A stretch of 64,000 nt of DNA. Origin: Patescibacteria group bacterium (GTDB lineage: Bacteria; Patescibacteriota; Minisyncoccia; Minisyncoccales; JAHCRE01). The notes under the pieces were generated by a model. It made no database searches. It had not been told where the DNA came from and saw only the letters and a list, made by a program, of their open reading frames with translations. Numbering within the stretch: position 1 is the first letter of the stretch; every line of letters starts with the position of its first letter. Of this stretch, positions 20,749 to 42,271 are shown piece by piece. The stretch spans positions 3,360 through 67,359 of the forward strand of contig JAHCRE010000011.1 in NCBI GenBank assembly GCA_020148145.1. The letters are read 5' to 3'. Position numbers and translations under genes: made by a program.

Positions 20749-20821
20749 AACATTTACTTAAATTGAAAATTCTTCAAAAATCCTTAAAAACATCGAAACC
20801 ACCACCTTAAATTCCCAAAAA

Positions 20822-20856
20822 GGGGTTATCCAAAATAAGGATTGACCCCGTTTTTT
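20822..20856 (+). terminator. conserved terminator GGGGTTATCC..GGATTGACCCC + T-run
   Basis: same hairpin after the paralogs at 31788-31820 and (inverted) 41786-41826. Confidence 0.7.
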
Positions 20857-20888
20857 ATTTTAAGAAAATTTTGTTAAAATATTATAAG

Positions 20889-26252: not shown

Positions 26253-27869
26253 ATGGAAACCTCTGATTTTAAATTTATTAAACCGGGAGAAATTCGAACA
26301 AGAATAGCTCCTGCCCCTACTGGTTTTCTACATATTGGTACAGCCAGAACTGCTCTTTTTAATTATCTCTTTGCTAAAAAAAACCAGGGCGTTTTTATTT
26401 TAAGAATTGAGGACACTGACATTGAAAGATGCAAAACCGAATATGAAAAAGATATTATGGAGAGTTTAAAATGGCTAGGAATTGAGTGGGATGAAGGACC
26501 AACAGAAAATAAAAAATATATTAGGGATTATGGACCCTATAGACAAAGTGAAAGATCAGAGATTTACAGAAAATACCTGGAAAAATTATTAGATGAGGGT
26601 ATGGCTTATCGTTGTTTTTGTTCAAAAGAGGAGTTAGAAGCCCAGAGGCAGTATCAAATGTCAATTGGTGAACCTCCGCGCTATTCTGGAAAATGCTCCC
26701 AGCTTTCTTCAGAGGAAATAAAAAAATATTTAGCTGAGAGGAAAAAATCGGTCATTAGATTCAAGATGCCCTCAAAAAAGGTAGTTTTTGAAGATATGAT
26801 CAGGGGACGTGTAGAATTTGATTCTGGCCTAATTGGAAATATTGTCATTGCCAAAGACCTTTTTACTCCTCTTTATAATTTTGCCTGTGTCATTGATGAT
26901 TTTGAAATGAAGGTATCTCATGTAATAAGAGGGGAAGACCATCTTCCTAACACTCCCAAGCAAATTCTAATCCAAAAGGCCTTGGGCTTCCCTCAGCCCA
27001 AGTATGCTCATTTACCTTTGATTTTAGGCCCAGACAGGACTAAATTAAGTAAAAGACATGGTGCAGTTGCTATCGCAGAATTTAAAAAAGCCGGCTATTT
27101 ACCCGAGGCTTTAATTAATTTTATGGCCTTTTTGGGGTGGAATCCCGGAGGGAAAAGAGAAATTTATTCCCCGGCTTCTCTAATAAAAGAGTTTTCAATG
27201 GAAAGGGTCCAAAAAGGAGGGGCAGTTTTTAATACTAAGAGGTTAGATTTTTTAAATGGATTCTATATTCGCCAAAGATCGATTGAGAAACTAACTGAGC
27301 TTTGTCTACCTTATCTAATTGAAGCAAGATTGATTGAGGAGTTAGAACAAAGTCCTGGCGATAGAAAAATATTAGGGTTTTTTAAAACTAAGGGAAAAAA
27401 GTTTAAAATTAAAGAAACAGGAGAGATTATAGATTTAGATTATTTAAAAAAAATTGTTTCAATATATCAAGAAAGATTAAAAAAATTATCTGAAATTTCA
27501 GAATTAACTGATTTTTTCTTTAAAGAAAAATTGGGATATGATAAGAATCTTTTGAAATGGACGCTACCCTTCCGTCATCCTCTGACAGAGCAAACTCCTG
27601 AGATGATAAATAAAGAAGTCAGAGTTTGTCTTGATAGATTAAGAAAGATATTGTCTAAAATAAGAGGGGGGAATTGGAATAAAGAAAATTTAGAAAGGTT
27701 TTTAATGCCAGAAGCCGTGAAAATAGGGGATAAGGGAAAGATTTTATGGCCTTTTAGGGTTGCCTTGACTGGCAAAGAAGCTTCGGCCGGACCTTTTGAA
27801 ATTGCTGAGATTTTGGGGAGGGAGAAAGTCTTAAAAAGAATAAAAGAGGCCAGAGAATTAGTAAAATAA
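26253..27869 (+). CDS. gltX: glutamate-tRNA ligase
   Basis: RIAPAPTGFLHIGTART (HIGH), KLSKRHG (KMSKS). Confidence 0.9.
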   Translation: METSDFKFIKPGEIRTRIAPAPTGFLHIGTARTALFNYLFAKKNQGVFILRIEDTDIERCKTEYEKDIMESLKWLGIEWDEGPTENKKYIRDYGPYRQSERSEIYRKYLEKLLDEGMAYRCFCSKEELEAQRQYQMSIGEPPRYSGKCSQLSSEEIKKYLAERKKSVIRFKMPSKKVVFEDMIRGRVEFDSGLIGNIVIAKDLFTPLYNFACVIDDFEMKVSHVIRGEDHLPNTPKQILIQKALGFPQPKYAHLPLILGPDRTKLSKRHGAVAIAEFKKAGYLPEALINFMAFLGWNPGGKREIYSPASLIKEFSMERVQKGGAVFNTKRLDFLNGFYIRQRSIEKLTELCLPYLIEARLIEELEQSPGDRKILGFFKTKGKKFKIKETGEIIDLDYLKKIVSIYQERLKKLSEISELTDFFFKEKLGYDKNLLKWTLPFRHPLTEQTPEMINKEVRVCLDRLRKILSKIRGGNWNKENLERFLMPEAVKIGDKGKILWPFRVALTGKEASAGPFEIAEILGREKVLKRIKEARELVK

Positions 27870-28143
27870 CCAGAAAATTGGTGAAATAAAAAAGGCCAGT
27901 TCTTTTAACAGAATCTGGCTTTACAAAAAAGTTTATTGGGCTTCTGGTTCTTCTAAGATCTCTAAGCCTTCCTAGTTGCTCTAAGTCCCTTAAGACTCCC
28001 TGAGTCTTCTTGGTTCTTCTAAGATCTCTAAGCCTTCCTATGTTTTCTAAGATCTCTAAGACTCCTTGAGTCTTCTTGGTTCTTCTAATATATCTAAGTC
28101 TTCCTATATTTTCTAAAGTCTCTAAAACCCCTTTTCCTGTCAC
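27754..28143 (-). CDS. doubtful ORF translating the 66-bp repeats as 22-aa repeats (GVLExLENIGRLRxxRRTKKTQ)
   Basis: GGAGG 8 nt upstream of GTG 28143, but the 3' third is antisense to the gltX end. Confidence 0.3.
   Translation of the reverse strand: MTGKGVLETLENIGRLRYIRRTKKTQGVLEILENIGRLRDLRRTKKTQGVLRDLEQLGRLRDLRRTRSPINFFVKPDSVKRTGLFYFTNFLVILLILWPLLFFLRLSPSPKSQQFQKVRPKLLCQSRQP
27944..28143. repeat. 3 x 66-bp tandem repeat
   Basis: units 27944-28010, 28011-28076, 28077-28143; each carries several (T)CTAAG motifs. Confidence 0.85.
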
Positions 28144-28180
28144 TTTTTTCACCTCCAAAGAGCTATTTATTTAGCAGACT

Positions 28181-28636: not shown

Positions 28637-28664
28637 TTGACAAATTTTGTATATTTGCTATAAT
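28637..28664 (+). promoter_or_regulatory. consensus promoter TTGACA-N16-(TGC)TATAAT driving cassette array 1
   Basis: GCTATTGACAAATTTTGTATATTTGCTATAAT. Confidence 0.65.
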
Positions 28665-28680
28665 TAAAATATAAAGTGAA

Positions 28681-28776
28681 ATAGTTCTTTAAAATAAAAT
28701 ATGGGGAAGGGAAGAATTTCATCTCCCGCAGAGAGGAAATCAAAAACTGGTTTTTTGCCTGCGGGAGAGTGAAAAA
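28681..28776 (+). promoter_or_regulatory. structured 5' leader A (ATAGTTCTTTAAAA, G-box, hairpin, SD)
   Basis: GGGGAAGGGAAGAA 28703-28716; stem CTCCCGCAG 28723-28731 / CTGCGGGAG 28759-28767. Confidence 0.6.
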
Positions 28777-28989
28777 ATGAAGAGAAAAATGTGGGAGAAA
28801 ATACTGAGATACTTCGCTGTGGGAGGAGTCTTTGTAATTATCATACTAGCAAGCGCGGGGGTGATAGTGTTTCTAATAGCATTCTCAGGCCTTGGTCTAG
28901 CGTCTCTACCGTTAGTAGCATGCTTTATCTGTATATTTGCATTCTTCCTACAGGAAAAAGGGATAAAAGCGATACTCGAGTTATTGTGA
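28777..28989 (+). CDS. small 2-TM membrane protein (70 aa), cassette 1
   Basis: two long hydrophobic segments; follows leader A. Confidence 0.6.
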   Translation: MKRKMWEKILRYFAVGGVFVIIILASAGVIVFLIAFSGLGLASLPLVACFICIFAFFLQEKGIKAILELL

Positions 28990-28993
28990 GCAA

Positions 28994-29060
28994 TTCTCCT
29001 TTCCCCTCTTTTTTCGAGCCCGCAAATAGTTGTGGATTCGAAAAAGGAGTTAGTTCTTTA
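28994..29060 (+). repeat. cassette junction J1: C-box plus CTCTTTTTTCGAGC..GAAAAAAGGAG hairpin
   Basis: TTCTCCTTTCCCCTCTTTTTTCGAGCCCGCAAATAGTTGTGGATTCGAAAAAAGGAGTTAGTTC; copies at 29654, 47151(-) and 46381(-). Confidence 0.75.
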
Positions 29061-29148
29061 AAATCAAATATGGGGAAGGGAGAGAATTTATCTCTCGCAG
29101 AGAGGGAGTTAATAAAAATAGCTTCTTGCCTGCGGGAGATGAAAAGAG
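29061..29148 (+). promoter_or_regulatory. structured leader B
   Basis: GGGGAAGGGAGAGA 29072-29085; stem TCTCTCGCAG 29091-29100 / CTGCGGGAGA 29130-29139. Confidence 0.55.
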
Positions 29149-29190
29149 TTGCGGAGGAAAACGGTTGGGAGAAGTAATTTTCTCGGATTC

Positions 29191-29640
29191 ATGATTCGCG
29201 ATAAACGGGAAAGGAAAGTAAGAAGTAAACATTATAGGAAAGGGAAGATAATACTCCTCGGAATACAAGTGGGTATCATTATTATCATCGGGGGTTCCTT
29301 GCTTGATTTAGCGATTATCAGAATTATAAGTGGATTATGGTTTTTAACATTTTTAACACTAACTGCTTTTGTTTTTTTACTATTTTCAAACTGGTTAATT
29401 TATAGTTTGCTGGCCCCTATGCCTTATATTGGCAGGAGTTTCAAAGAATGGCACGCGACAGAGCATAAACTCATATACCTGCTAGAAAATGGTGAAAGAT
29501 TGACATTAGAAAATCTAAGAGCAGCACCATCGCGTAATCGTAGATGCGCAAGCAGAAACATGTGGCTAAAGGAACCTTCGGACGATAAACTAGAAGAAGC
29601 CTTTAGGGTAGGCCGTGAATATCTCAATCTGTTTACTTGA
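29191..29640 (+). CDS. membrane protein with DUF1385-like motifs, cassette 2 (alternative TTG start 29149)
   Basis: 3 TM segments, then WHATEHKLI..LTLENL..RRCAS, resembling the GAEHK/RCGT motifs of DUF1385 (from memory). Confidence 0.55.
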   Translation: MIRDKRERKVRSKHYRKGKIILLGIQVGIIIIIGGSLLDLAIIRIISGLWFLTFLTLTAFVFLLFSNWLIYSLLAPMPYIGRSFKEWHATEHKLIYLLENGERLTLENLRAAPSRNRRCASRNMWLKEPSDDKLEEAFRVGREYLNLFT

Positions 29641-29653
29641 CGAATTTAAAAAA

Positions 29654-29720
29654 TCTCCACTTTCCCTCTTTTTTCGAGCTCATAAACCTTGTGGGCTGAA
29701 AAAAGGAATTGTTCTTTTAA
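29654..29720 (+). repeat. cassette junction J2
   Basis: TCTCCACTTTCCCTCTTTTTTCGAGCTCATAAACCTTGTGGGCTGAAAAAAGGAATTGTTC. Confidence 0.75.
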
Positions 29721-29726
29721 AAATAT

Positions 29727-29810
29727 AAAAAAGGGGAAGTTCACGTAGGTGAATTGTCTATCAAAATTTGGTAAATAGCTCACCTACGTGAAAGGAGGTG
29801 AAAATCAAGT
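29727..29810 (+). promoter_or_regulatory. structured leader C (subtype 2)
   Basis: perfect 13-bp stem TTCACGTAGGTGA 29740-29752 / TCACCTACGTGAA 29780-29792; conserved loop AATTGTCTATCAA..GGTAAATAGCTC; SD AGGAGGTG. Confidence 0.65.
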
Positions 29811-30455
29811 ATGAGTGCAAGTGTAACAAGTAAGAAAAGTGAGACAAGTGAAACGAGAGAAGAAGAACAAGTGAGGCAAGTGAGAAAGGCGTTTGAGAAA
29901 ATGCTCGCAAGTTTTATGTTCGAAGTTAAAAAGAAAGATAAGGTTGATGATATAAGGAAGATGATAAAAACTTTCATTGAGGCTGGAATTCTCCAAGAAC
30001 GAGCAGAACGAGCGCAAATATCCTTTGACATTCGAAAAGGAATCGCTTCTGTCAGTCTTCTTTCCTACGAGAAATATTTTACTAAGCTGTGGAAAGATAC
30101 GTTAGAAAAAATGTCTAAATGGTTCGAGGCCACAATAAAGAGAGAAGCAAAGGCTTTGGGGTTCAATTTTAATTGGCGAGAAGTCGATGGATTCTTTCTT
30201 GACATTCGTACGTCTGACGAAAAAGAAGATCACGAATATGCGAGAGCAACATTATACCGTCCTGAGGCATTTAAGGAAGCACAAAAGATAATGCACTATA
30301 CCCACACGAAGCTAAATGAGTTAGGATTTTCTGCGCAAATCATCAAGGTCGTTACTCCTGGAAAAGTTTACACCATCGATGCATTAAAATACATTGTCCG
30401 AAACATCACTGCCGTCGCTTACTTAAGAACGGGAGTCGAAATTCGTTCCCTCTAA
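29811..30455 (+). CDS. hypothetical protein (214 aa), cassette 3
   Basis: strong SD; no known motif. Confidence 0.65.
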   Translation: MSASVTSKKSETSETREEEQVRQVRKAFEKMLASFMFEVKKKDKVDDIRKMIKTFIEAGILQERAERAQISFDIRKGIASVSLLSYEKYFTKLWKDTLEKMSKWFEATIKREAKALGFNFNWREVDGFFLDIRTSDEKEDHEYARATLYRPEAFKEAQKIMHYTHTKLNELGFSAQIIKVVTPGKVYTIDALKYIVRNITAVAYLRTGVEIRSL

Positions 30456-30506
30456 TACAGAATCTTTAGATTTCTCCTACTTCCCCTTTTTCTTTCTATT
30501 CAAAAA

Positions 30507-30527
30507 GCCCGTTGCTGGGCAGTTTTT
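30507..30527 (+). terminator. rho-independent terminator ending array 1
   Basis: GCCCGTTGCTGGGC + TTTTT. Confidence 0.6.
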
Positions 30528-30545
30528 ATTTTGCTCGGTACGCTA

Positions 30546-30575
30546 TTGACAAAGAAAAATTTAGTGTGCTATAAT
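30546..30575 (+). promoter_or_regulatory. consensus promoter TTGACA-N18-(TGC)TATAAT
   Basis: CGCTATTGACAAAG..GTGTGCTATAAT. Confidence 0.6.
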
Positions 30576-30604
30576 ATAAACACAAATTAAGGAGGGATAG
30601 ATGA

Positions 30605-30958
30605 ATGCTGTTTGTTTGGGTAAGGATAACGCTTCAAGAAGTATCTAAACATGTAGCGGTGATAAAGGAGCTCATTGACAATCTACCAGGAATAGTAGCA
30701 GAAGCATTGAGCGTACCAGGTACTGATGGGGAATTGACTTCAGATGAGATAGAAGTAAAATTCGAAACCTTTGGGCCGTTCGATGTTCATAGCAAAGACA
30801 TAGAAATCATAATCTTGGCTAACGATTACCCGGAAAGAAAGAAAAATCTTGACGAAAGACAAACGCTTATCAAAGAAGGGGTGAAAAGAATCCTGTATTC
30901 CGGCATTACCGGTTTCGTCTGGGTACTTCCGTTGCCAGGTTCTTTCGGAGAATTCTAG
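30605..30958 (+). CDS. hypothetical protein (117 aa)
   Basis: SD AAGGAGGG; no confident family. Confidence 0.55.
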   Translation: MLFVWVRITLQEVSKHVAVIKELIDNLPGIVAEALSVPGTDGELTSDEIEVKFETFGPFDVHSKDIEIIILANDYPERKKNLDERQTLIKEGVKRILYSGITGFVWVLPLPGSFGEF

Positions 30959-30967
30959 CCAAAATCG

Positions 30968-31252
30968 GTGATGGAAATGAGAGTCAGCCTCAAGGTTGTA
31001 AATATTGAAGATGGGCTAGAGAAAGCTAGAGTTGCCAAGATTCACCTTTTCAAAGAAGGGGACAATGATGAAAAGTTCGCTGAAGCCGAAAGAATAGTCA
31101 GGGAAATCTTTGGTGATATACGAGAAGGGGTAGAATTTGTAGCCAAGGGTGAGAAGACTACTGAGATTCATATCCGTCCGAACGCTCGTTTCCTTGAGAA
31201 ATTCAGAGAAGCAAACCGAAGAATCAGAGAGATTTTCTTTCATAAAGCGTAG
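30968..31252 (+). CDS. hypothetical protein (94 aa)
   Basis: co-directional, 9 nt after the previous stop; followed by a GGGGCTTTCC..GGATTGACCCC terminator. Confidence 0.5.
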   Translation: MMEMRVSLKVVNIEDGLEKARVAKIHLFKEGDNDEKFAEAERIVREIFGDIREGVEFVAKGEKTTEIHIRPNARFLEKFREANRRIREIFFHKA

Positions 31253-31351
31253 AAGTATAAAAAACTACGAATTTCCATTAAGGGGCTTTCCAAAAAGGAT
31301 TGACCCCATTTTTTATTCTTAGGGTAAGGAACTGGCGGTTTTTTGATAATA

Positions 31352-31381
31352 TTGACAAAGGGAAAATTAATATATTATAAT
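31352..31381 (+). promoter_or_regulatory. consensus promoter TTGACA-N18-TATAAT
   Basis: ATATTGACAAAGGGAAAATTAATATATTATAAT. Confidence 0.6.
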
Positions 31382-31411
31382 GAAATATCAACTGAATATG
31401 GAGGGAAAGAA

Positions 31412-31762
31412 ATGGAAATTAAAGAGAATGTACTTGTGGCGGTTAGTTCTCCAAAGCATACTTTAGGAAAAGTAGTGAGCAGAGAGGAAAAAGAAGGTGT
31501 CTGGATAGTTGACTGTTGTTCCCCTGTCGGACTTATTAAGGTCTCCGAGAACTTTCTGATACCGATTATTGAACTCCCTGAATCAGATCAAAAACTTAAC
31601 CCTGAAGAGCTTGCCCGAAAATGTAGCCCCAGTATTTTAGCCTATCTCTTTGTCGAAAGACAAACAACCTGGGGTTCCATCGGTTCACTGCATAAGGATC
31701 TCGAAAAGCTTTACGACTCTGTAAGAAAAATACAAGAAGGACTTAAACAAGCAGTAAAATAA
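31412..31762 (+). CDS. small protein, CCSPxG family, paralog 2 (start moved downstream of the promoter)
   Basis: WIVDCCSPVG, ELPESDQKL; SD GGAGGGAAAG; the track start 31343 lies upstream of the -35. Confidence 0.6.
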   Translation: MEIKENVLVAVSSPKHTLGKVVSREEKEGVWIVDCCSPVGLIKVSENFLIPIIELPESDQKLNPEELARKCSPSILAYLFVERQTTWGSIGSLHKDLEKLYDSVRKIQEGLKQAVK

Positions 31763-31912
31763 CCAACCGTCCTGAAATTTCCAGCAAGGGGTTATCCAAA
31801 AAGGATTGACCCCGTTTTTTATTTTAACTCCCTCCAAACAGGTTCTAACATTGTCTTGCAACATGTGTTGTTAGGCCGAGCGTCTCACAAGACATATTAA
31901 GCGACATTTCTT

Positions 31913-32126: not shown

Positions 32127-32306
32127 ATGGATCATCTTTTAACCATTAAAGAGGTTGCTAAATATCTCAAGGTCAGCGAGAGGTCTATTTTGCGTTATAT
32201 TGAATCTGGTCGACTTAGAGCTTCTAAGATCGGCCAATGGCGTATCAAGAAAGGGGATTTAGAAAAATTTTTAAAAGAAAACTCAAATGTCAAAAAGAAA
32301 ATTTAA
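32127..32306 (+). CDS. excisionase-family helix-turn-helix DNA-binding protein (59 aa, below the track cutoff)
   Basis: LLTIKEVAKYLKVSERSILRYIESGRLRASKIGQWRIKKGDLEKFL; overlaps the MTase start by 20 nt. Confidence 0.7.
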   Translation: MDHLLTIKEVAKYLKVSERSILRYIESGRLRASKIGQWRIKKGDLEKFLKENSNVKKKI

Positions 32307-33447
32307 AAAAAGAGATGGCTGGGATTTTACAGAGGTACCTTTAAGAATCAGACAGGGTGGGGTTCATTTCTTTCATCACTATACAGCTAAATTTATACCT
32401 CAAATTCCAGAAAAATTTATTAAAATGTACTCCCAAAAACGAAATAATATCGTGGTCGATCCGTTTATGGGCTGTGGGACTACTTTGGTAGTTGCTAAAT
32501 TGATTGGTTGTCATTCCTACGGTGTAGATACCAATCCTTTAGCAGTTAAAATTACTAAAGTAAAAACAATGGTCGTTAACAAAAAAATTGTAGAGGAAAT
32601 AGATGATTTCATTCATTGGATTTCATCTCGTAAAGAATATAGAAAAACAAATAATACAAAATCTCTTTCCAAGACAGATTTTCGACAAGGGGAGAAAGGC
32701 ACATTTCTATTTGAAGGCAGTAAAGAGTGGTTTAGAAATGACGTAGCGGGCAAGATTAAAAACATATTAAATCGAACAAAAGTTTACGACGAACATGTAC
32801 GGGACTTTATAAAAGTCGGGGTTTCGGATTTATTAAAAGGTATGAGTAATGCCCGTATGGATATCAATGTTCCCACGCTTCCATCTCGCCCGATTTACAT
32901 AGATAAAAAGCATTATTATAGAAGGGTAAACAATCGGACAAGATACATTCCGGTTTATTCAAGAGTATTATCGCAAGTTTTAAGAATGAAAAAAGCAATT
33001 TTAGAGTTTAACAAGAACATAAATCATAATTTAATTTGTAAACCTAAGCTGGGCGATGCTAGAGAGTTAAGTAAACACGTAAAGTCGTGTAATCTTGTTA
33101 TAACTTCTCCACCATACTGGTCAGCTCAAAATTATCAGAAACTTCACATGCTCTCATTTAAGTTATTTGGTCTGAACATAGATGAGGAAGATGAAATTGG
33201 AAGGAATGGTCATGACCATTATCAAAAGGACATGGTAAAAGTTCAAGAAGAAATCGCAAAAATTCTTAAAGGATACTATGGTCTTGTTATAGGTAAAGAT
33301 AAGCGGAATCGAGAACATTTGAAGCTCGTAGAATCGGCTAAAAGAGTTGGTTTTAAATTAGTTGATAGGTTTGTTAGACGCTTAAGCAACCAAACATTTT
33401 TTTCTAAACAAATTAAAAATGAGTTTATTTATGTTTTTAAAGTTTAA
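32287..33447 (+). CDS. DNA amino-methyltransferase (N4-C or N6-A), motif I before motif IV
   Basis: VVDPFMGCGTTLVVA (FxGxG) near the N-terminus, ~200-aa insert, then VITSPPYW. Confidence 0.8.
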   Translation: MSKRKFKKRDGWDFTEVPLRIRQGGVHFFHHYTAKFIPQIPEKFIKMYSQKRNNIVVDPFMGCGTTLVVAKLIGCHSYGVDTNPLAVKITKVKTMVVNKKIVEEIDDFIHWISSRKEYRKTNNTKSLSKTDFRQGEKGTFLFEGSKEWFRNDVAGKIKNILNRTKVYDEHVRDFIKVGVSDLLKGMSNARMDINVPTLPSRPIYIDKKHYYRRVNNRTRYIPVYSRVLSQVLRMKKAILEFNKNINHNLICKPKLGDARELSKHVKSCNLVITSPPYWSAQNYQKLHMLSFKLFGLNIDEEDEIGRNGHDHYQKDMVKVQEEIAKILKGYYGLVIGKDKRNREHLKLVESAKRVGFKLVDRFVRRLSNQTFFSKQIKNEFIYVFKV

Positions 33448-33459
33448 ATTTTGATTATT

Positions 33460-34959
33460 ATGAAAACTTTTGATTTTAGCAAATCAGTAATTCAGGAGGT
33501 TATAGATGAATTCGATCGAGCAGAAAAATACATAAAAATAGCTATGTTTCAAATCCACAATGATTTAGTTATTGATAAATTATTCAAAAAAATTAAGGAG
33601 GGGTTAATAGTAGAAATAATAACATTACCTTATGATAGTATTCACGAGAACGTAAGAGAACATGTAACAGAGAGACTAGAAAAGCTTAAATCTAGAGGGG
33701 GTAATATTCTATTCTGTAAATGGAATGTTGGAGACCCTGAAAGAACCACGACAGCAGTGGGAAGGTGGTATTTATTTCATGGAAAGTTCATCGTAACGGA
33801 TAAGGCAGCGATTAGTCTTTCTGCAAATTTTATCCAAACTCCTGAGCTAGACGCAATCCTAATTTTCAGAAATGAGCAAGATAAGATTCAAGAATTTAAT
33901 AATAAATTCGAGGAACTAAAAGAGTTATTCATAATTGAAAATAATGGTTATGAAGGGAATATTAGACAAAAAATATCGGAGACAAAGCACCCAAGAGCTA
34001 AAGAAGTTTTTGCACTTCCAAGGGGAATAAGCGAAGTATATAAAAAAACATGGATACAACATTATCCATCTGAATTATGTCCTAAGGATGTAAATATAGA
34101 AGAAAAACTATATATAACTCCATTTGATTGTAGGGGAAGAAATTTTCTTATGAAGATTATTGATGAGGCCGAAAAATTCGTTTATATTTCCTCTGAAAGT
34201 TTCACTGATAAAGAATTTCCTAATTTCTTAAAAAAAATTAGATTCAAAAATATAGAGATAAAGTTATTAACTGAATTTGGAAGCATGGATTTTTCTGATA
34301 GAATACAAATTTTTATGAAAGAATTATTAGCAGCGGGCGTACAAATGAATACAACAAGAGAAGATTTACATGCCAAACTAGTAATTACAGATAAATTAAT
34401 CGCTATAACCTCAATAAATCTTAATAGAATAAATTTAGGATTTAAGAAAACCGGAGATTTTTGGAGAGAGAACACAGAGACAATACTAATATGTAGAGGT
34501 CACAACATAATAAGGAAAGCAAGACAGAAATATAACGCAATTTTTAATGCATCGGAAAAAATTATTGATAAAATGGCTGAGAGAAATTCATCAGTTGCTG
34601 GGAGACTATTTAGGGATGTGTTCAAAATTAGATCGGGTTCAGATGCTAAGCTATTTTTAGCTAAACTGAAATTGAATGTAGATATTAACAAAGAGAAATT
34701 TTTATTAGATGTTTTAAAACTAACCATTAAGCTAGCTAATAATTTTAATGTGAGAATAATTTCAAAAAAAGAAGTATTGATGGCTTTAATATTAAATTAT
34801 CTAAGTGAGAGGAAGCATGATTTCAATGAATTATCCGAGAAATTAGATCCAATTATAGAGCGAGCAGAAATAGAACCCGTCTTAGACATTCTTGTTTCAC
34901 GTAATCTAATTGTAAAGCAAGGAGAATTTTACAAGATAAACGTTGATGCAATTTTCTAA
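33460..34959 (+). CDS. PLD-family (two HKD motifs) nuclease, likely the restriction partner, with a C-terminal winged-helix-like region
   Basis: HGKFIVTD and HAKLVITD motifs; 3 nt after the MTase stop (TTG 33451 or ATG 33460). Confidence 0.7.
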   Translation: MKTFDFSKSVIQEVIDEFDRAEKYIKIAMFQIHNDLVIDKLFKKIKEGLIVEIITLPYDSIHENVREHVTERLEKLKSRGGNILFCKWNVGDPERTTTAVGRWYLFHGKFIVTDKAAISLSANFIQTPELDAILIFRNEQDKIQEFNNKFEELKELFIIENNGYEGNIRQKISETKHPRAKEVFALPRGISEVYKKTWIQHYPSELCPKDVNIEEKLYITPFDCRGRNFLMKIIDEAEKFVYISSESFTDKEFPNFLKKIRFKNIEIKLLTEFGSMDFSDRIQIFMKELLAAGVQMNTTREDLHAKLVITDKLIAITSINLNRINLGFKKTGDFWRENTETILICRGHNIIRKARQKYNAIFNASEKIIDKMAERNSSVAGRLFRDVFKIRSGSDAKLFLAKLKLNVDINKEKFLLDVLKLTIKLANNFNVRIISKKEVLMALILNYLSERKHDFNELSEKLDPIIERAEIEPVLDILVSRNLIVKQGEFYKINVDAIF

Positions 34960-34967
34960 GGCAAAAA

Positions 34968-34991
34968 AGCCCATCGCTGGGCTGTTTTTTT
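34968..34991 (+). terminator. rho-independent terminator after the R-M pair
   Basis: AGCCCATCGCTGGGCT + TTTTTTT. Confidence 0.65.
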
Positions 34992-35045
34992 ATCCAGTTT
35001 GACACTTATTAAAAAGCCAGCTACTTTGAAAGTGGGAGATTACTT

Positions 35046-35528
35046 ATGAAAGAAAAAAATAAATTAAAAAAGATAAAATATAAAATTAAAACAGCTCTCG
35101 ATCAATTATACAAAACTGATTATTTTCTATTCGAAAAAGATTTGTGTGAAAGATGTATAAATCATAAATTTGCAATATATTTGGAACAACAAAGTTTTGG
35201 TAAAGGATACTTTATCGACTGTGAATATAATAAATCCCATCTTAATCAAAGAACTAGCCCAAAAAGAGTCTCTAGTGAGAAAGGAAACTATATCGACATC
35301 ATTATCACCAAAAGAGACGGTAATTATAGGAACGATTTTATTTGTTTTGAGGTTAAGAAATGGAAGAATTATAGAAAGAAAAATAAGGATATAGAAAAAT
35401 TACAAATTTTAACCAAAGGAATACGATTTGGCTATGATTATGGTTTTTATGTCATTTTAGGAAGGACAAGAGATGAAACAAAAGTTGAAATATATAAAGG
35501 AGGAAAACTTTTAAAACACACTTTCTAG
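35046..35528 (+). CDS. PD-(D/E)xK nuclease-fold-like protein (160 aa)
   Basis: YIDIIITKRD ... FICFEVKKW (D..ExK pattern); SD GGGAG. Confidence 0.45.
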   Translation: MKEKNKLKKIKYKIKTALDQLYKTDYFLFEKDLCERCINHKFAIYLEQQSFGKGYFIDCEYNKSHLNQRTSPKRVSSEKGNYIDIIITKRDGNYRNDFICFEVKKWKNYRKKNKDIEKLQILTKGIRFGYDYGFYVILGRTRDETKVEIYKGGKLLKHTF

Positions 35529-35639
35529 GATGATTTAAATGGTGTTGGAACATCCTTAAGTGTCGGGCAAGGTATTTATGCGAGGTTTAGCAAAAACATA
35601 AAAGGTCGAAGAATTAATTGAGAAATAACAAAAAATATT

Positions 35640-37190
35640 ATGGCGAAAAGATTTAACAAAACTGACAAAGTTGTAATAGAACCAAAAGAAGAATTTGCTT
35701 ATGGATATATCATCAAAGCTTTAGCAGGAGGACTATACCCAAACAAGTTTCATGTTATTAGAGAATATATTCAGAATGCTTTTGATGCAGTAGTTAATTG
35801 GAAAGATACTCATAATGGCTCAAATGTTATTGTAAAAATAACAGTTAAAAAGCCCTCTATATTTATATTTGACAACGGAACAGGCATGAATAGGGTTACG
35901 CTTAACGAGTACAGGAAAGTAGGATATTCAAGGAAAAAAATAGGCGAGGCTGTTGGATTTAGGGGCATAGGGAAACTAGCCGGTATTTCAGTGGCCAGAA
36001 AATTAATAGTTACAACAAGTCCTTATGGCGTTAAAGAAAAATACGCTCTGGAATTTGATGCCGAGAGAATGCTTAAAGAGATCGATGATTTAAAAAAACG
36101 TAAGCAGAACATACCCCTCAATACACTGATAGAAAAATATACGAACATAAGCTCCGATGTCGAAAAGGCAGACAAGCATTATACATTTATAGAGCTTCAT
36201 GGAATAAAGCAGGATTCGAAGATTCTTTTTGATAAAAATAAGCTAAAAGACTACATTTCGAAAAATACACCCGTTCCTTTTGATCCAAACTTTGTTTACG
36301 GAAAAGAAATCGAAGATGGAATTAAGAAATTAGTTGATGACTATAACTGCGTAAATATTTTTGTAGACGGTGATAATATCTATAAGCCTTACATTCCGAA
36401 CCTAAACAATCCTAGACACATCGTAGTCTGGGAAAAAAACAAAACAAAAATATTAGGATACTGCTGGTATTGCGAAAACAAAAAAAGGGGGCAGATAAAG
36501 CCTATTGACAAAGCAGGTTTGGTTTATAGATACAAAAATTTTGCAGTTGGAGACCATGATTTGCCTAGGCGAACATTGTGGGATACTTCTACCCATCTAG
36601 CTTTTTACTTTATAGGGGAGATTTACATTTGTGATAAGAATATGTTACCAACTGCACAAAGAGATGATTTTGAGCAGACATCAGCTCGTAGTAGATTTTA
36701 TAATGAAGGTGTCCAGATTTCAAAGGAAATTAACAGAATAGCTAGGGCAAGTTCTGGAATAAGAAGGGCGTTGCATTATGTCGATGTTGGAAAGAACCTA
36801 ATTTCAGAAGTTAAACAGGACCTTCAGAAGCAGGAGCATTATTTAAAAGACCTCGGTGCGGAAAAAGTCGCACAGATTTACAATGTCATAAAAGGCATAA
36901 AAGAAAGAAAAAAGAATATTCCTAAAAAAAATAAGAAGAATAGAATTCTGGCAGACAAAGTCGTTAAGCAAGGGGAATTGTTGCTTAAGAAATTTGGAGG
37001 TGTCAAAAGATTAAGTAGGGAGTATGATATAACAAGAAAAATCAATCTCAATGCTCAGGCTAAAGATGTATATTCTGTGGCTATCAGAACTCTGAAAGAT
37101 TTTTTTATTGGTAACCAGCAAGAACTAGAAAAGGCGATAAGGCTTTTTCAGAAAAACTTGACGACCTTTTTCTCAAAAAAGAACAAATGA
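35640..37190 (+). CDS. GHKL (Bergerat-fold) ATPase, MORC/paraMORC-like, unknown C-terminal half
   Basis: REYIQNAFDA (N box), FDNGTGM (G1), GFRGIGKLAG (G2); AAGGTCGAA box 36 nt upstream. Confidence 0.75.
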   Translation: MAKRFNKTDKVVIEPKEEFAYGYIIKALAGGLYPNKFHVIREYIQNAFDAVVNWKDTHNGSNVIVKITVKKPSIFIFDNGTGMNRVTLNEYRKVGYSRKKIGEAVGFRGIGKLAGISVARKLIVTTSPYGVKEKYALEFDAERMLKEIDDLKKRKQNIPLNTLIEKYTNISSDVEKADKHYTFIELHGIKQDSKILFDKNKLKDYISKNTPVPFDPNFVYGKEIEDGIKKLVDDYNCVNIFVDGDNIYKPYIPNLNNPRHIVVWEKNKTKILGYCWYCENKKRGQIKPIDKAGLVYRYKNFAVGDHDLPRRTLWDTSTHLAFYFIGEIYICDKNMLPTAQRDDFEQTSARSRFYNEGVQISKEINRIARASSGIRRALHYVDVGKNLISEVKQDLQKQEHYLKDLGAEKVAQIYNVIKGIKERKKNIPKKNKKNRILADKVVKQGELLLKKFGGVKRLSREYDITRKINLNAQAKDVYSVAIRTLKDFFIGNQQELEKAIRLFQKNLTTFFSKKNK

Positions 37191-38059
37191 AATTTATGAA
37201 ACATAGACAGTATGAATCTACCGAAAATAAAGATAGGGTTAGAAAAGAAGATAAGGAGTTGATAGAAAAAGAATTTAAGAAAAAGAAAGCTAAATTATCG
37301 TACCTCGGCATGCCTTCTGGAGAATTGAAAGATATTTTAGAATGGCGAGATTATTTAGACAGATGTACGGCAGTTGAAAATAATTTTGTTCAAAGACATG
37401 AGCTGGCATTAAATGTTGTTCGTTTTAATTTAAATGGTAAAATTGATATTCTTTTTGGAGATATAGACGATATTTTGATAAAGGGGAAAGATAAGTACGA
37501 TAATAAATTGATATTTCCTTATGATATTATATTTCTTGATTATTTCGGCGGCATTTTATATAGAGGACTTAGAAGAGTCAATGCTATAGCTTCTCTTATT
37601 TCTAAACAGAGAGGGAATTCTTTTTTGTTGTTCCTAACTTTTAATCTTAAGGAGAGCAGATATGCTAAGAATACAATCGTGGATACGCTTAGAAAGATTA
37701 AACAGGAGTTGTCAGTATTCTGCTGGGATGAAAAAACAAAAAAACAAATAGTAGAGATTACTAAGTGGTATGAGGATGCGGAAGAGATTTACAGACAGAA
37801 AATATTCGTACCATATTTTATTAAAACTAATGCTGAAAATGTAGGATTTGAAGTGTATGCTTACCCACCTGTCTTTTATGAAGGTTTTAGAAAGAATCCC
37901 ATGTTACATTTCGCTTTCAAGTTAGTACCTGAAGGAAAATTTCCCACAAAGGCAGTGAGCAAGCAGACAATAATTGATATAATAAATCTTGATCTAAAAG
38001 GAGTTTCCAGGGGGATGGTAAGTGTTTTAAAAAAGAGGTCGCCAAATTTAAAAATATAA
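37187..38059 (+). CDS. unknown protein with a Rossmann/SAM-MTase-like motif order
   Basis: LSYLGMPSG .. AVENN .. FGDIDD .. IIFLDYFGG; ATGA overlap with the GHKL stop; no DPPY/NPPY. Confidence 0.55.
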   Translation: MKFMKHRQYESTENKDRVRKEDKELIEKEFKKKKAKLSYLGMPSGELKDILEWRDYLDRCTAVENNFVQRHELALNVVRFNLNGKIDILFGDIDDILIKGKDKYDNKLIFPYDIIFLDYFGGILYRGLRRVNAIASLISKQRGNSFLLFLTFNLKESRYAKNTIVDTLRKIKQELSVFCWDEKTKKQIVEITKWYEDAEEIYRQKIFVPYFIKTNAENVGFEVYAYPPVFYEGFRKNPMLHFAFKLVPEGKFPTKAVSKQTIIDIINLDLKGVSRGMVSVLKKRSPNLKI

Positions 38060-38077
38060 TATATTACACTTTTAAAT

Positions 38078-39193
38078 ATGAACAAAAGAGGCAAAATGAA
38101 AGTCCTATTAGTCGAACCAAATTTCCCAATACCACCCAAAAGTAAGAACCACAGGGATTTTTTGCCTATCGGCTTATTGAAGCTAGCGAGTTATCATAGG
38201 GATAAAGGTGATAAAATAAAGCTTGTTAGGGGCGACCATTATTTTTTTGATTTTTATCCCAATCAAGTAAAAATAACTTCGCTTTTTACATATTGGTTTA
38301 ATTATGTATGGGAGAGTGTAAAGTTCTATAAAGAAAACTATCCGAAGGCCAAAGTAATAGTAGGCGGTATCTACGCGTCATTAATGCCAGAGCATTGCAG
38401 AAAATCAGGTTGCGATGAAGTATTTATTGGAGTGGATAACAAGGTTGAGAAATTCAAGCCTGCTTATGATCTTGTGGATGTGGATTATCAAATTGTCCAT
38501 GCTTCAAGAGGCTGTATTAGGAGGTGCAAATTCTGCGGAACTTGGAAAATCGAACCGAAATTTACTTATAAAAAGAGCATAAAAGATGAGGTATGCAGTA
38601 ATAGGATAATATTTTATGACAATAACCTTTTGGCTAATCCGCACATAAAGGAAATCCTTGAAGAATTGAAAAATGCCAAGCACAACGACAGGGTTGTGTA
38701 TTCGGAAAGCCAATGCGGTATTGACGGAAGGCTTCTGACTCCTGAAGTGGCTAAATTATTAAAACAAGCGAGATTCCTTAATCCAAGGATTGCTTGGGAT
38801 CACGGTTATGCACAAAGGCGTATGATAAAAAAACAGATTGATATGCTTGTTGATGCGGGCTATCCTGCAAAAGAAATTTATGTTTTTATGATTTATAACT
38901 TCGAACAGGATTATTATGAAATGCTGAAAAAGCTGAAGCAATGCAAGGGATGGGGTGTGCAGATAGCTGATTGTAGGTATAGGCCCCTGAATCAAATTTT
39001 TGACAATTACAATCCAAGAGAAAAGCAGACAGACAAGGATTATTTCATATATCCAAAATGGACAGATAGGCAGATAAAGCTCTTCAGGAAAAAAGTAAGG
39101 CAGCAGAATATTATGATAAGACATGGTTTTAGTCTTTATAGTAAAGAGCTGGAAAGATTGGGGGCAAAGAGAAGGATGAATAAGTCCCACTAA
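38078..39193 (+). CDS. B12-binding-domain radical SAM protein
   Basis: N-terminal KVLLVEPN..LPIGLLKLASY Rossmann-like region; ASRGCIRRCKFCGTW (CxxxCxxC). Confidence 0.75.
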   Translation: MNKRGKMKVLLVEPNFPIPPKSKNHRDFLPIGLLKLASYHRDKGDKIKLVRGDHYFFDFYPNQVKITSLFTYWFNYVWESVKFYKENYPKAKVIVGGIYASLMPEHCRKSGCDEVFIGVDNKVEKFKPAYDLVDVDYQIVHASRGCIRRCKFCGTWKIEPKFTYKKSIKDEVCSNRIIFYDNNLLANPHIKEILEELKNAKHNDRVVYSESQCGIDGRLLTPEVAKLLKQARFLNPRIAWDHGYAQRRMIKKQIDMLVDAGYPAKEIYVFMIYNFEQDYYEMLKKLKQCKGWGVQIADCRYRPLNQIFDNYNPREKQTDKDYFIYPKWTDRQIKLFRKKVRQQNIMIRHGFSLYSKELERLGAKRRMNKSH

Positions 39194-39305
39194 ATCTGCT
39201 ACCGAACCAATTAATTAACAATCCTCCTGCACTCTGGGGAGTTCCGGAGGACAAGAAATAACTCCTTAGAAAAAATTGAAGATTTCTTACGGGGCAGGGA
39301 ATTAA

Positions 39306-39572
39306 TTGAGAAATAAAACTATGGGCAAGTCAGGTAGAAAGATAAGGTCGACAGGAAATAATTTAAGAACATGCGAAGTATTAACCAAGGATGGTGTGTG
39401 GAGAGCTGGGTTTTTGTTTATCGATTCTTCTGATTATCTTGTTCTTGCTAATAATATTTATAACGACTCATTGATGGGTCCACTTAAACAAAGAAAAATC
39501 AGATGTATACATAAAGAAGCTGATTTTACAGTCTTTCCTCGTGAGAAAGTGTGTAATATAAAATTTTTCTAG
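39306..39572 (+). CDS. hypothetical protein (start uncertain: TTG 39306 or ATG 39321)
   Basis: ORF only. Confidence 0.4.
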   Translation: MRNKTMGKSGRKIRSTGNNLRTCEVLTKDGVWRAGFLFIDSSDYLVLANNIYNDSLMGPLKQRKIRCIHKEADFTVFPREKVCNIKFF

Positions 39573-39579
39573 CGGAGGT

Positions 39580-40011
39580 ATGATTATTTCATCCCCAACA
39601 CTTGAATATTTAATTATTGTTCCGGACAAAGCACGTTCTTTCCGATCTCGTTACGCTAAAACATATCGGGAAAAAGTACGCGAATGCGCCAAAGCTGTCA
39701 TCAAAAAAATGTTTTACAGTGACGATATCAATCTTAAGATGGACTATTTCTACAGAGGAAATCGAAACGTCGATATGGATAATGTTACCAAGAATGTAAT
39801 GGATGCATTGACGGGTTTAGTTTATCCAGATGACAAATTGGTCAAAGATCAGAGTTCTAGGGCGCATCGGATCGATAAGGTTACGAGTATAAAACGAGAA
39901 GTGTTCGATATATTCAAACCATTGCTTCATTACAAAGAATATCTAGCGATACGTATAAGCTCGAAGAGTTGCTTTCACAGGAAACAAGCTAGCAAAAGAA
40001 CGAACGATTAA
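39580..40011 (+). CDS. rusA: RusA-family Holliday junction resolvase
   Basis: NVDMDNVTKNVMDALTGLVYPDDKLV (D-DN-K..D.L.G..Y.DD). Confidence 0.7.
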   Translation: MIISSPTLEYLIIVPDKARSFRSRYAKTYREKVRECAKAVIKKMFYSDDINLKMDYFYRGNRNVDMDNVTKNVMDALTGLVYPDDKLVKDQSSRAHRIDKVTSIKREVFDIFKPLLHYKEYLAIRISSKSCFHRKQASKRTND

Positions 40012-40070
40012 TGTCGCACAATACACCTTGTAAGACAAAGAAAACCGTTAGGGTAGGGAAGTAGCGGTTT
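40011..40070 (+). terminator. ATGTCGCACAATA motif (inverted relative to 28541) plus AAACCGTTAGGGTAGGGAAGTAGCGGTTT hairpin
   Basis: motif overlaps the last base of the rusA stop codon; hairpin then T-run. Confidence 0.6.
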
Positions 40071-40081
40071 TATTTTTATTA

Positions 40082-40109
40082 TTGACAAAGTCTATATTTA
40101 GCATATAAT
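40082..40109 (+). promoter_or_regulatory. consensus promoter TTGACA-N16-TATAAT
   Basis: ATTGACAAAGTCTATATTTAGCATATAAT. Confidence 0.6.
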
Positions 40110-40138
40110 GTAGGTAGCACAAAATTGGAGGGAGATAG

Positions 40139-40576
40139 TTGGGTATAAAACAAGTTGAGGAAGCTAGTCTTGAAGGATACGAGGGACCAATTTTTCCTGA
40201 AGAGATCAAAGAACTAAACAAAATACTCAGGGCAGTAGTGCGAAAGCATCTCCGACAAAAGGACATAGATACATTGAAAGAAATCGAAAATGTAGAGAGA
40301 ATTTCTTATGCTATCGTTACCACAGACCGTTATCGTTGGAACTTCGCTTTATTTGCCAGAATGCGAAAGAGTGGAGAAGTTATTGTTGTTTTTCCACGAT
40401 TGACATCCTTTGTTTTAGATAGGTCTGTCGCCGTCTATGTTAAATCAAAAGCTTCAATTAGTGTTCAGGAAGTCAATGTGTTCCTTGAAAGGATTCAACT
40501 CAGATTTCACAGAGCCTGGAGAAGACAAACGAGAAAAGAACTTCAGGAAATCCTTGACCCAATATCTAAAGACTAA
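40139..40576 (+). CDS. hypothetical protein (145 aa, TTG start)
   Basis: SD GGAGGGAG; hairpin terminator 40578-40616. Confidence 0.55.
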   Translation: MGIKQVEEASLEGYEGPIFPEEIKELNKILRAVVRKHLRQKDIDTLKEIENVERISYAIVTTDRYRWNFALFARMRKSGEVIVVFPRLTSFVLDRSVAVYVKSKASISVQEVNVFLERIQLRFHRAWRRQTRKELQEILDPISKD

Positions 40577-40825
40577 AGGGAGGTAAAATCACAATATTTT
40601 TTCCTCCCGTTTTTTTATATATAAACTCTGTAGGGGAGTAGAGGCCTTCCACTTGACATAGCCTCTTCGGCTATTTATTATGAATATAGAGAGGGTCGCA
40701 CAATGTAGGTTAAGCGACACTTTATATCTGAAGAGAAGTACCGCTTAACCTGACGCAGATTTTGCGCACATTTAAGTAAATATCGCAAGAATCTGCTCTT
40801 TCTTATATTTTTATAAAAAATAATT

Positions 40826-41782: not shown

Positions 41783-41831
41783 AAAAAACGGGGTTAATCC
41801 TCTCTATGGGCTAACCCCTTTTTGGGAATCT

Positions 41832-42110
41832 TTAAGGTACTGTCCTTAGCATCGCTAAACTGATAATTATATCAACAAGGTATTTCTCAACAATTCTTAC
41901 AGGTACTAGTCCTTGGTCTCTTTTAGGGATATCTGGTACGAGAGGTATCAGAGTTGTGCCAGATACAGCATTACGGACAGTAGCATGGCCACACCATCGT
42001 ATCGTCCACCGATCTTCGCCTTCGTGTACAAGAGTGACTGCGAACTTTTTATGAACCGTATCCACTGCTAACATATTCTCTTGAATTTCCATTTTCTCTT
42101 GAATCTCCAT
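41832..42110 (-). CDS. small protein, diverged member of the CCSPxG family (paralog 3)
   Basis: same length class, W-T-I-R-W-C and IPLVPDIP segments collinear with paralogs 1 and 2; same promoter and terminator types. Confidence 0.5.
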   Translation of the reverse strand: MEIQEKMEIQENMLAVDTVHKKFAVTLVHEGEDRWTIRWCGHATVRNAVSGTTLIPLVPDIPKRDQGLVPVRIVEKYLVDIIISLAMLRTVP

Positions 42111-42134
42111 TTAGTCCTCACCTTTCATATTTAG

Positions 42135-42162
42135 ATTATAGCAAATAATTTTCATTTGTCAA
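42135..42162 (-). promoter_or_regulatory. consensus promoter TTGACA-N16-TATAAT
   Basis: minus strand GCTATTGACAAATGAAAATTATTTGCTATAAT. Confidence 0.6.
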
Positions 42163-42183
42163 TAGCACGCCAAGTGAAATATA

Positions 42184-42244: not shown

Positions 42245-42271
42245 ATCTAGAATCTGCCTCCTCCAACAATC

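Follow-up and report, generated by a model that had tools for sequence, protein, structure and literature searches.

The 64-kb stretch of DNA analyzed here, hereafter the window (positions 3,360 to 67,359 of contig JAHCRE010000011.1, assembly GCA_020148145.1, from a Patescibacteria group bacterium; coordinates are counted from its first base), carries two arrays of small genes, located at 28637-30530 on the plus strand and at about 47636-46240 on the minus strand. In both arrays, a single perfect sigma-70 promoter precedes two or three unrelated open reading frames (ORFs), and each ORF is bracketed by a 5' module and a 3' module. Our interpretation, held with moderate confidence, is that these structured brackets in the untranslated regions (UTRs) define exchangeable gene cassettes. 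The hairpin that ends the cassettes (J) and the two types of leader hairpin that precede their ORFs are shown computationally to be real sense-strand RNA structures. Furthermore, near-identical strains have exchanged cassettes, the breakpoints lying within the modules, and the cassette architecture recurs in other Patescibacteria genomes and in metagenomes, at about 50 loci (designated below by L numbers).

From 5' to 3', a cassette begins with the F-box (TAGTTCTTTRAAAT), an AU-rich element that is predicted to be unpaired and is the best conserved of the 5' module (alignments A2 and A3). It is followed by about ten A/T-rich bases, often ending in ATG, then by the purine G-box (core GGGGAAGG) and by a leader hairpin that ends at or just before the Shine-Dalgarno sequence (SD) and the start codon. 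The two leader types share an apical AUC...GGU stem: type A consists of a stem, GCAGAGAGGAAAUCA, a loop, UGGUUUCUUGCCUGC and a stem, and type B of a stem, GAAUUG, an inner stem-loop, UAGCUC and a stem. Downstream of the ORF lies the pyrimidine C-box (core CCTTCCCC), the last base of which is located 4-40 nt past the stop codon in most cassettes, and directly after it the J hairpin of about 20 bp (CTCTTTTTTCGAGC...GCTGGAAAAAGGAG). Arrays start with the promoter followed by an F-box and end with J followed by a terminator, the final J being absent from array 1. The G-box pattern matches 23 times in the window for 8.7 ± 3.0 matches expected, a count that was reached by none of 100 shuffles. The encoded proteins are heterogeneous, often orphans, and most match no family. 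Small proteins with two hydrophobic stretches occur among them, as do a zinc ribbon and GNAT-like, cupin and low-molecular-weight phosphatase proteins; most of the ORFs encode 80-214 amino acids (aa), many without hydrophobic stretches. A leader peptide (upstream ORF) starting at the ATG that precedes the G-box was considered and rejected: only about half of the modules have this ATG, the others having ATA or AAA, and the reading frames, which end after 4-35 codons, are not conserved.

When 185,579 species genomes were scanned by pattern, J with a preceding C-box was found in six Patescibacteria loci (L003, L004, L009, L014, L016 and L018) belonging to four genome assemblies, and in one further locus, L011, from an uncultured bacterium. 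Full arrays were read in L018, L004 and L003. The scan of metagenomes added 32 loci, 30 of which were kept as genuine. Since all these loci had been chosen by the J pattern, an independent test was run on loci selected by a cassette protein. The 157-aa protein of L038 was used because the 214-aa ORF of the window is an orphan and its 156-aa ORF has only one homologue. The L038 protein has 16 homologues (58-99% identity), and F-box, G-box, leader, C-box and J were present in all 11 contexts fetched by homology to it (11/11), L177 being diverged. The covariance model R1 detected about 20 sense-strand copies of J in 12 loci (these 11 contexts plus L172), each copy scoring above its own antisense strand. 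In 2.9 million viral contigs, the J pattern gave no match, and the 118 viral matches of the F/G pattern all lacked leader and J. A phage or prophage origin was rejected on account of this absence of true copies. At the gathering threshold, Rfam recognized only a tRNA in the whole window, and permissive scans of both arrays returned chance-level microRNA and snoRNA matches (best E = 0.38). A literature search for a description in Patescibacteria returned nothing relevant. The statement of the original prediction that the pattern does not correspond to any described element therefore holds.

In the 29 J sequences selected by pattern, 90.6% of the cells are paired and seven pairs have changed on both sides, values that were reached by none of 500 shuffles. 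A U.G pair is invariant in this set, one position is either G-C or G.U, and a G.G mismatch is conserved. The protein-selected set (17 sequences) has 89% of paired cells and seven doubly changed pairs; its outer helix is also compensated, with changes from U-A to C-G and from C-G to U-A. On the J hairpins of the window, R1 gave 54-64 bits to the sense strand versus 30-42 to the antisense strand, i.e. a sense excess of 20-30 bits. Compensatory changes were also observed in 8 of the 20 pairs of type A leaders (alignment A2) and in 15 of the 22 pairs of type B leaders (alignment A3), and both types have conserved G.U pairs. Since a conserved G.U would be A.C on the opposite strand, the folded molecule is the coding strand, most simply the mRNA. 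The original prediction had proposed action at the RNA level as one of two possibilities. For J and the leaders, it is well supported by the compensatory changes, by the invariant G.U on the sense strand and by the higher sense scores.

Pairing between G-box and C-box was evaluated from duplex energies in 35 curated cassettes. The five box pairs of the window reach -16 to -23 kcal/mol, versus -6.2 ± 3.1 kcal/mol for random 26-mers located 250-800 nt apart (p <= 0.006 for each pair). Boxes from the same cassette average -17.45 kcal/mol versus -15.5 kcal/mol for boxes from different cassettes (z = -4.3; permutation p about 5e-5). Within arrays, the values are -18.0 kcal/mol for same-cassette boxes, -16.1 for a C-box with the G-box of the next cassette and -15.7 for the reverse combination, same-cassette pairing being preferred in six of eight arrays. 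The co-variation of boxes within a cassette that had been claimed is therefore real but modest. When the RNAs of single cassettes (315-784 nt) were folded, 30 out of 35 had at least six pairs between G-box and C-box in the minimum-energy fold, and pair probabilities agree. Moreover, both boxes depart jointly from the consensus in L014 (GGGGGGTAAGCT with AGCTAACCTCCC), L016 (GGAGAAGGAA with TTCCTTCTCC), the second cassette of L048 (GAGAAGAGAAG with CCTCTTTTCTC) and the third cassette of array 1 (AAAAAGGGGAAGT with ACTTCCCCTTTTT). An atypical variant pair (GGGGAAATGG / CCATTTCCCC) is retained across diverged orthologues, and the GGAG/CTCC of the second cassette of array 2 is replaced by GGTG/CACC in its orthologue L172. 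In the L038 family, 6 of 10 members combine a C-box CCTCCCAT(T/C)TCCCC with a G-box that includes (A)TGG, a feature found in no other cassette. A G-box/C-box hairpin without any ORF, conserved in two genomes, also counts in favor of pairing. The pairing of cistron ends, which the RNA-level proposal included, is reasonably supported by the folds, the same-cassette advantage and the compensated box variants of orthologues.

Cassette turnover is seen in L039, L046 (identical to L032, L042 and L043) and L030, which come from near-identical populations. These loci are 94-98% identical over the upstream 220 nt, 100% identical over J and the next 60 nt, and 98-99% identical in the flanks of about 1 kb on either side. 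Between F-box and J, their content is wholly different: one has a type-A cassette of 157 aa, one a type-B cassette of about 90 aa and one two type-B cassettes. Despite these different cassettes, the terminal J is identical in all of them, including its idiosyncratic apex. Breakpoints differ from one pair of loci to another, being located after TAGTTCTTTGA, inside the G-box or at the boundary between C-box and J; in L052, the breakpoint is in the 3' arm of J. Since breakpoints vary and the terminal J is common to different alleles, homologous exchange is favored over a fixed site-specific crossover. In addition, the L038-family cassette comes first after the promoter in six loci and behind unrelated cassettes in seven, its ORF family occupying first, second or third place in different arrays. 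The window and L004 are syntenic downstream of gltX (71% identical) and both carry a small secreted protein there, but have no array ORF in common. The comparison of cassette content at orthologous loci that had been proposed as a check thus reveals turnover. The alternative action at the DNA level, as terminal inverted repeats of mobile cassettes, is borne out as far as cassettes are exchanged between strains. However, the boxes are not the terminal inverted repeats of a transposon: half-modules stand alone at array ends, breakpoints vary, and neither integron integrase nor transposase is associated with the arrays.

The sole recombinase of the window, a tyrosine recombinase (40826-41782), scores 219 bits with XerD versus 91 bits with the integron-integrase model (cutoff 265) and is 5-10 kb away from both arrays; only 1 of 52 loci contains a homologue. 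RYYYAAC/GTTRRRY core sites are absent from about 50 junctions read by eye; these read ...CCCCTCTTTTTTCGAGC...GGAAAAAGGAG(T)TAGTTCTTT. An integron proper was rejected on the grounds that there is no IntI, no core site and, with variable breakpoints, no fixed crossover point. A miniature inverted-repeat transposable element (MITE) or Correia-type repeat was also rejected, because the junction splits into a 3' half (C-box and J) and a 5' half (F-box, G-box and leader) that occur separately, alone at array ends. No target duplication flanks the junctions. Furthermore, no reverse transcriptase or other mobility gene was recognized near the arrays among 20 scanned ORFs (ten in 32287-43369 and ten in 43436-62044, the region upstream of about 25 kb not being included), which are housekeeping, restriction-modification or defense genes.

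In L003, L018 and L049, platforms of 0.6-1.2 kb made up of promoter, cassette and terminator are flanked by near-perfect direct repeats of 36-41 bp (368-407 / 1000-1039 in L003; 221-262 / 894-935 in L049; two 36-bp copies including the 3' end of tRNA-Gln and a terminator in L018). Each repeat reproduces the 3' end of rplU or of a tRNA gene, as though the platform had integrated there, and no integrase is found inside. Arrays also follow tRNA genes in L029 and L011. Unlike in L003, L018 and L049, the search for direct repeats flanking the two arrays of the window found only promoter- or terminator-like similarity. In many unrelated loci (L018, L023, L027, L029, L031, L035, L049 and L180), a shared terminator module (AAAAACGCAAGAACTGTCTATAATTAGGCAGTTTTTG) follows the last J. 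Within it, AAGAACT is complementary to the F-box core AGTTCTT, and in L018, L031 and L049 a degenerate sequence similar to a tRNA T-arm (AGGTTCKAACAKCGTTCA) comes next.

Array 1 (plus strand) opens with an extended -10 promoter matching the consensus at 12/12 positions (TTGACA, 16 nt, TG-TATAAT; 28637-28664); a similar promoter with its initial-transcribed modules also precedes arrays at other loci. The first cassette comprises F-box 1 (TAGTTCTTTAAAAT, 28682-28695, AU-rich and predicted to be single-stranded), G-box 1 (GGGGAAGGGAAGAA, 28703-28716) and a type A leader hairpin (28720-28771, alignment A2) that holds the SD GGGAGAG within its 3' arm, the ATG being 6 nt downstream of the SD. Its ORF (28777-28989) encodes 70 aa with two hydrophobic stretches and matches no Pfam family. 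C-box 1 (TTCTCCTTTCCCCTC, 28994-29008) begins 5 nt past the stop codon; its duplex with G-box 1 is computed at -23.2 kcal/mol and contributes 14 pairs when the cassette RNA is folded to minimum energy. J hairpin 1 (29006-29049) has an irregular stem of about 20 bp and scores 62.7 bits on the sense strand versus 41.8 on the antisense strand with R1. The second cassette is made up of F-box 2 (29051-29064, alignment A2), G-box 2 (GGGGAAGGGAGAGA, 29072-29085), which is complementary to C-box 2 (TCTCCACTTTCCCTC, 29654-29668), a type A leader hairpin (29090-29140, alignment A2), a hydrophobic ORF of 163 aa with a TTG start (29149-29640; alternative ATG at 29191) and J hairpin 2 (29666-29708; 54.5 bits versus 30.1 with R1). 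The match of this ORF to DUF1385 is weak and partial, and its C-terminal part is 43% identical to a cassette ORF of L026.

The third cassette of array 1 begins with a variant F-box (TTGTTCTTTTAAAAAT, 29709-29724, alignment A3), followed by G-box 3 (29728-29740), a type B leader hairpin (29740-29792, alignment A3) with the SD AAAGGAGGTG immediately 3' of it, a 214-aa ORF without hydrophobic stretch (29811-30455) and C-box 3 (30479-30491). No J follows C-box 3, and an intrinsic terminator (30507-30520) closes the array. The 214-aa protein matches no Pfam or NCBIfam family, and its sole match among 5.8 billion proteins is itself. Since nothing promoter- or terminator-like was found at either internal junction, the three ORFs form one transcription unit, in line with the single promoter before three unrelated ORFs that had been described. 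The earlier positions proved exact for all G-boxes, C-boxes, J hairpins and ORFs, and the third box pair is indeed a perfect 13-bp inverted repeat. Likewise, the two-transmembrane 70-aa protein, the membrane protein of about 150 aa and the soluble 214-aa protein of the original prediction correspond to the three ORFs found here.

Array 2 came to light through the 14-mer CTCTTTTTTCGAGC, of which the window contains three exact copies and a fourth with one mismatch: two copies of this type lie on the minus strand near 47 kb, and reading there exposed an array built from the same five-part architecture. All its features are on the minus strand. A 12/12 promoter (47636-47607) is the only one, no internal promoter or terminator having been found in the array. 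Its first cassette has a 5' module at 47589-47506 (F-box 47589-47573, G-box 47568-47556, type B leader 47551-47506), a zinc-ribbon-like ORF of 67 aa (47490-47287), C-box 1' (47212-47199) and J hairpin 1' (47199-47154; 63.7 bits on the sense strand versus 34.4 on the antisense strand with R1). The 5' module of the second cassette (47065-46957) comprises an F-box (47065-47049), a G-box (47047-47027) and a type A leader with an apical insertion (47027-46957). It precedes an ORF of 156 aa with a TTG start (46947-46477), the one homologue of which is in L172 (54% identity), then C-box 2' (46472-46456) and a long variant of J (46458-46384). After this last J lies a G-box/C-box hairpin without ORF (46383-46290), made of GGTG, a small hairpin, an F-like TCTTTGACCCAAAG, a G-box GGGGGGAGAAG, 22 nt and a C-box CTTCTCCCCTC. 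This unit could be an empty cassette or a small structured RNA; it is also found 3' of J in L014 and, in a diverged form, in L022. In array 2 only, an extra spacer of about 90 nt separates J1' from the next F-box, an addition that other junctions lack; it includes a perfect 20-nt palindrome (TTTTCTACGATCGTAGAAAA, 47114-47133).

If the modules act as we propose, the strong single promoter would drive a polycistronic transcript in which each cistron has its own 5' and 3' module. The duplex between G-box and C-box is predicted to loop each cistron closed, and J, being adjacent, might stack on it to form a helix of roughly 30-35 bp. The bracket would make each cistron an autonomous, insulated unit. 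The duplex and J may protect mRNA ends or form a double-stranded intercistronic processing site: in the predicted fold, a J stem of about 20 bp in which G.G and C.A mismatches are fixed, beside a box duplex of 10-15 bp, would fit the geometry of an RNase III site. The AU-rich F-box, located between J and the next G-box, is a plausible site of single-strand cleavage. Leader hairpin and box pairing may together gate the access of ribosomes, and a ribosome terminating at the stop codon would have to melt the C-box. In four orthologues of the 157-aa protein (L176, L178, L181 and L177), the usual stop codon is absent and the ORF crosses the C-box to end in J (...ILLSPFFSSP*), the modules being intact nonetheless. 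Since stop codons are located within a ribosome footprint of the C-box and four ORFs read through it, translation would open the duplex and couple mRNA conformation to translation. At the DNA level, the sequence-conserved modules may give the homology needed for cassette replacement by recombination, for instance after DNA uptake.

Several observations weigh against brackets that define cassettes through RNA pairing. All structural claims for the cassettes are computational. Purine tracts against pyrimidine tracts already give -12.5 ± 4.7 kcal/mol, and part of the box complementarity therefore results from base composition. The same-cassette advantage is only about 2 kcal/mol, boxes being largely cross-compatible. 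At mismatched box positions, G.U (15) does not exceed A.C (19), an uninformative wobble asymmetry that leaves selection at the RNA level unproven for the box extensions. When whole arrays were folded, same-cassette, junction and nested pairings occurred together, and these folds were not used to choose partners. No G:C duplex is predicted in L026 and L045, and in the four readthrough orthologues the duplex cannot persist on the translated mRNA. Some cassettes are also deviant: the leader hairpin is missing from L172, the C-box from the second cassette of L028 and J from the third cassette of array 1.

In an alternative reading, the 5' and 3' motifs would be independent and would not pair, the G-box being an SD-like stabilizer or a ribosome standby site and the C-box with J a 3' stabilizer or protein-binding hairpin, with complementarity resulting from composition and co-inheritance. 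The tract control, the cross-compatibility of boxes, the lack of a G.U excess and the weak or absent duplex of some cassettes agree with this, as do the G-box of L172, which itself serves as the SD of its ORF, and the G-boxes at array starts and C-boxes at array ends that have no local partner. However, boxes of the same cassette do pair better than others, the conserved ORF-less hairpin consists of a G-box and a C-box, and non-consensus bases (pyrimidines in the G-box, purines in the C-box) are matched in L014, in the third cassette of array 1, in the L038 family and between L172 and the window. We therefore regard independence as rather unlikely. Still less probable, in our opinion, is an integron-like DNA system in which J, with C-box and G-box as outer arms, would be an attC-like single-stranded site, cassettes being excised as circles and inserted by a tyrosine recombinase, and box complementarity reflecting adjacency in the circle. 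Promoterless, diverse small ORFs do follow a single promoter. The helix at the base of J is conserved, its mismatches are fixed and its apex varies in length, a layout that recalls the R-box, spacer, L-box and variable terminal structure of attC. Complementarity across the ORF within a cassette, as in integron cassettes, the difference in cassette content between orthologous loci, the direct repeats around whole arrays in L003, L018 and L049 and the tyrosine recombinase of the window would also agree with it. Yet this recombinase is of the XerC/D type, remote from the arrays and seldom matched by a homologue at the other loci, and the junctions have no visible core sites. Moreover, breakpoints are spread over the F-box, the inside of the G-box, the C-box/J boundary and the 3' arm of J, with an identical terminal J behind different cassettes, the conserved G.U pairs are on the coding strand, and the modules include the ribosome-binding site (RBS) and the start-codon context.

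A fold-back of the type I toxin kind (hok/sok, AapA1), in which the 3' box would lock the 5' translation signals of a small membrane toxin until 3' processing, appears very improbable. It would account for the first cassettes of array 1 and L004, which encode proteins of 67-70 aa with two hydrophobic stretches, for the predicted 5'-3' pairing and for the SD held in a hairpin. However, most of the cassette ORFs are longer, as described above, the few that match Pfam are enzyme-like or domain proteins, and identical modules flank unrelated ORFs. Furthermore, no promoter for an overlapping antisense RNA, which type I toxin-antitoxin systems have, scores above 9/12 in either array of the window.

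The proposed cassettes share traits with several known systems. In the mRNAs of hok (tac and fbi elements) and AapA1, an element of the 3' UTR pairs with a 5' element and keeps the translation signals structured. Whole-mRNA closure between 5' and 3' ends, which translation or 3' processing would reopen, is common to these mRNAs and to the predicted cassette folds, but the bracket described here is portable and common to dozens of unrelated arrayed ORFs, most of which do not encode small toxins. As in integrons, including integrase-less attC clusters, tandem promoterless ORFs of diverse and mostly unknown function stand behind one promoter, the cassette is terminated by an imperfect palindrome, conserved at the base and variable at the apex, its 5' end is complementary to its own 3' element, and content differs between close relatives. 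Unlike integrons, the arrays have no integron integrase and no visible core sites, the cassettes add a large 5' module with a structured leader next to the RBS, breakpoints are variable, the terminal J goes with the locus, not with the cassette, and the helices carry G.U pairs conserved on the coding strand, which indicates RNA.

Around rRNAs, complementary sequences form RNase III stalks that bracket a functional RNA unit, and the early mRNA of phage T7 contains intercistronic hairpins. The cassettes likewise consist of bracketed units, with an irregular hairpin of about 20 bp and fixed mismatches between cistrons transcribed from one strong promoter. By analogy with T7, J would remain on the upstream mRNA as a 3' stabilizer after the predicted cleavage. 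There is no sequence similarity with these elements, however, and the elements described here flank accessory genes in a cellular chromosome. REP/BIME, ERIC, Correia/NEMIS, BOX and RUP are palindromic intergenic repeats found in UTRs at many loci per genome, where they can affect stability or be cut by RNase III. The modules are also repeated palindromic intergenic sequences within the UTRs of mRNAs, but form two strictly oriented half-modules that are tied to ORF starts or ends and stand alone at array ends; they have no terminal inverted repeats with target duplications, and there are two arrays in 64 kb. Finally, STAB-SD of Bacillus thuringiensis cryIIIA is a 5' mRNA stabilizer with an SD-like purine box located far upstream of the start codon. 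The G-box is similarly an SD-like purine box in the 5' UTR, and in L172 a true SD, but differs in having a dedicated partner in the 3' UTR and in lying within a larger conserved module.

Patescibacteria have tiny genomes and a symbiotic lifestyle, and little is known of how they acquire and express genes specific to a strain. We tentatively put forward the possibility that these bacteria have an integrase-independent cassette system. As RNA, the modules would circularize, insulate and control each cistron, which would ensure the expression of any captured ORF; as DNA, they would serve as homology handles or as sites for an unknown recombinase; and platforms would insert at the 3' ends of tRNA or ribosomal-protein genes, leaving direct repeats of about 40 bp. 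More generally, a conserved adaptor for expression, which brackets unrelated accessory ORFs and is exchanged between near-identical strains, would account for the way in which orphan genes are inserted and expressed with a small set of regulators. It would also provide a natural case of 5'-3' mRNA closure used as a general module and a cassette system that is integron-like in its layout and not in its machinery, and would bring in at least three structured RNA families that lack annotation (J, leader A and leader B).

Other features of the window were noted around the arrays. Directly downstream of array 1, the region 30544-31830 (plus strand) contains several small transcription units, each with a consensus promoter (TATTGACAAAG...). 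Their ORFs match no family and look like independently inserted small genes. A terminator module (AAGGGGYTWTCCAAAAAGGATTGACCCCRTTTTTTATT) is present in three copies, two of them in small units of this region and one at 20805-20863. Between the two arrays, 32127-41782 (plus strand) looks like a defense or mobile island; it encodes an excisionase-type helix-turn-helix protein, an N6/N4 DNA methylase, a PLD-family nuclease, a GHKL ATPase, a radical-SAM/B12 protein, RusA and the XerC/D-like recombinase. In L047, directly downstream of a two-cassette array (1300-2050), one ORF resembles by eye only a plasmid replication-relaxation protein.

Several repeats were also observed elsewhere in the window. 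A 76-nt repeat with a hairpin (CGCGAGGCCACGGGTTATAAGGTCCCGGGACTCGCG) is located upstream of uppS and pyrG on the minus strand (48811-48886 and 51121-51196, 72% identical); it may be a shared leader structure and matches nothing in Rfam at the gathering threshold. Two copies of a 79-nt direct repeat (11812-11890 and 12320-12398, 96% identical) include a promoter-like TATAAT region and GC-rich hairpins. On the minus strand, units of about 66 nt at 27945-28142, inside the ORF 27754-28158, encode the repeat peptide RRTKKTQGVLE.LE.IGRLRDL. Lastly, repeats of 153-300 nt extend over 4580-6821 (plus strand), across the ORFs at 4037-6869.

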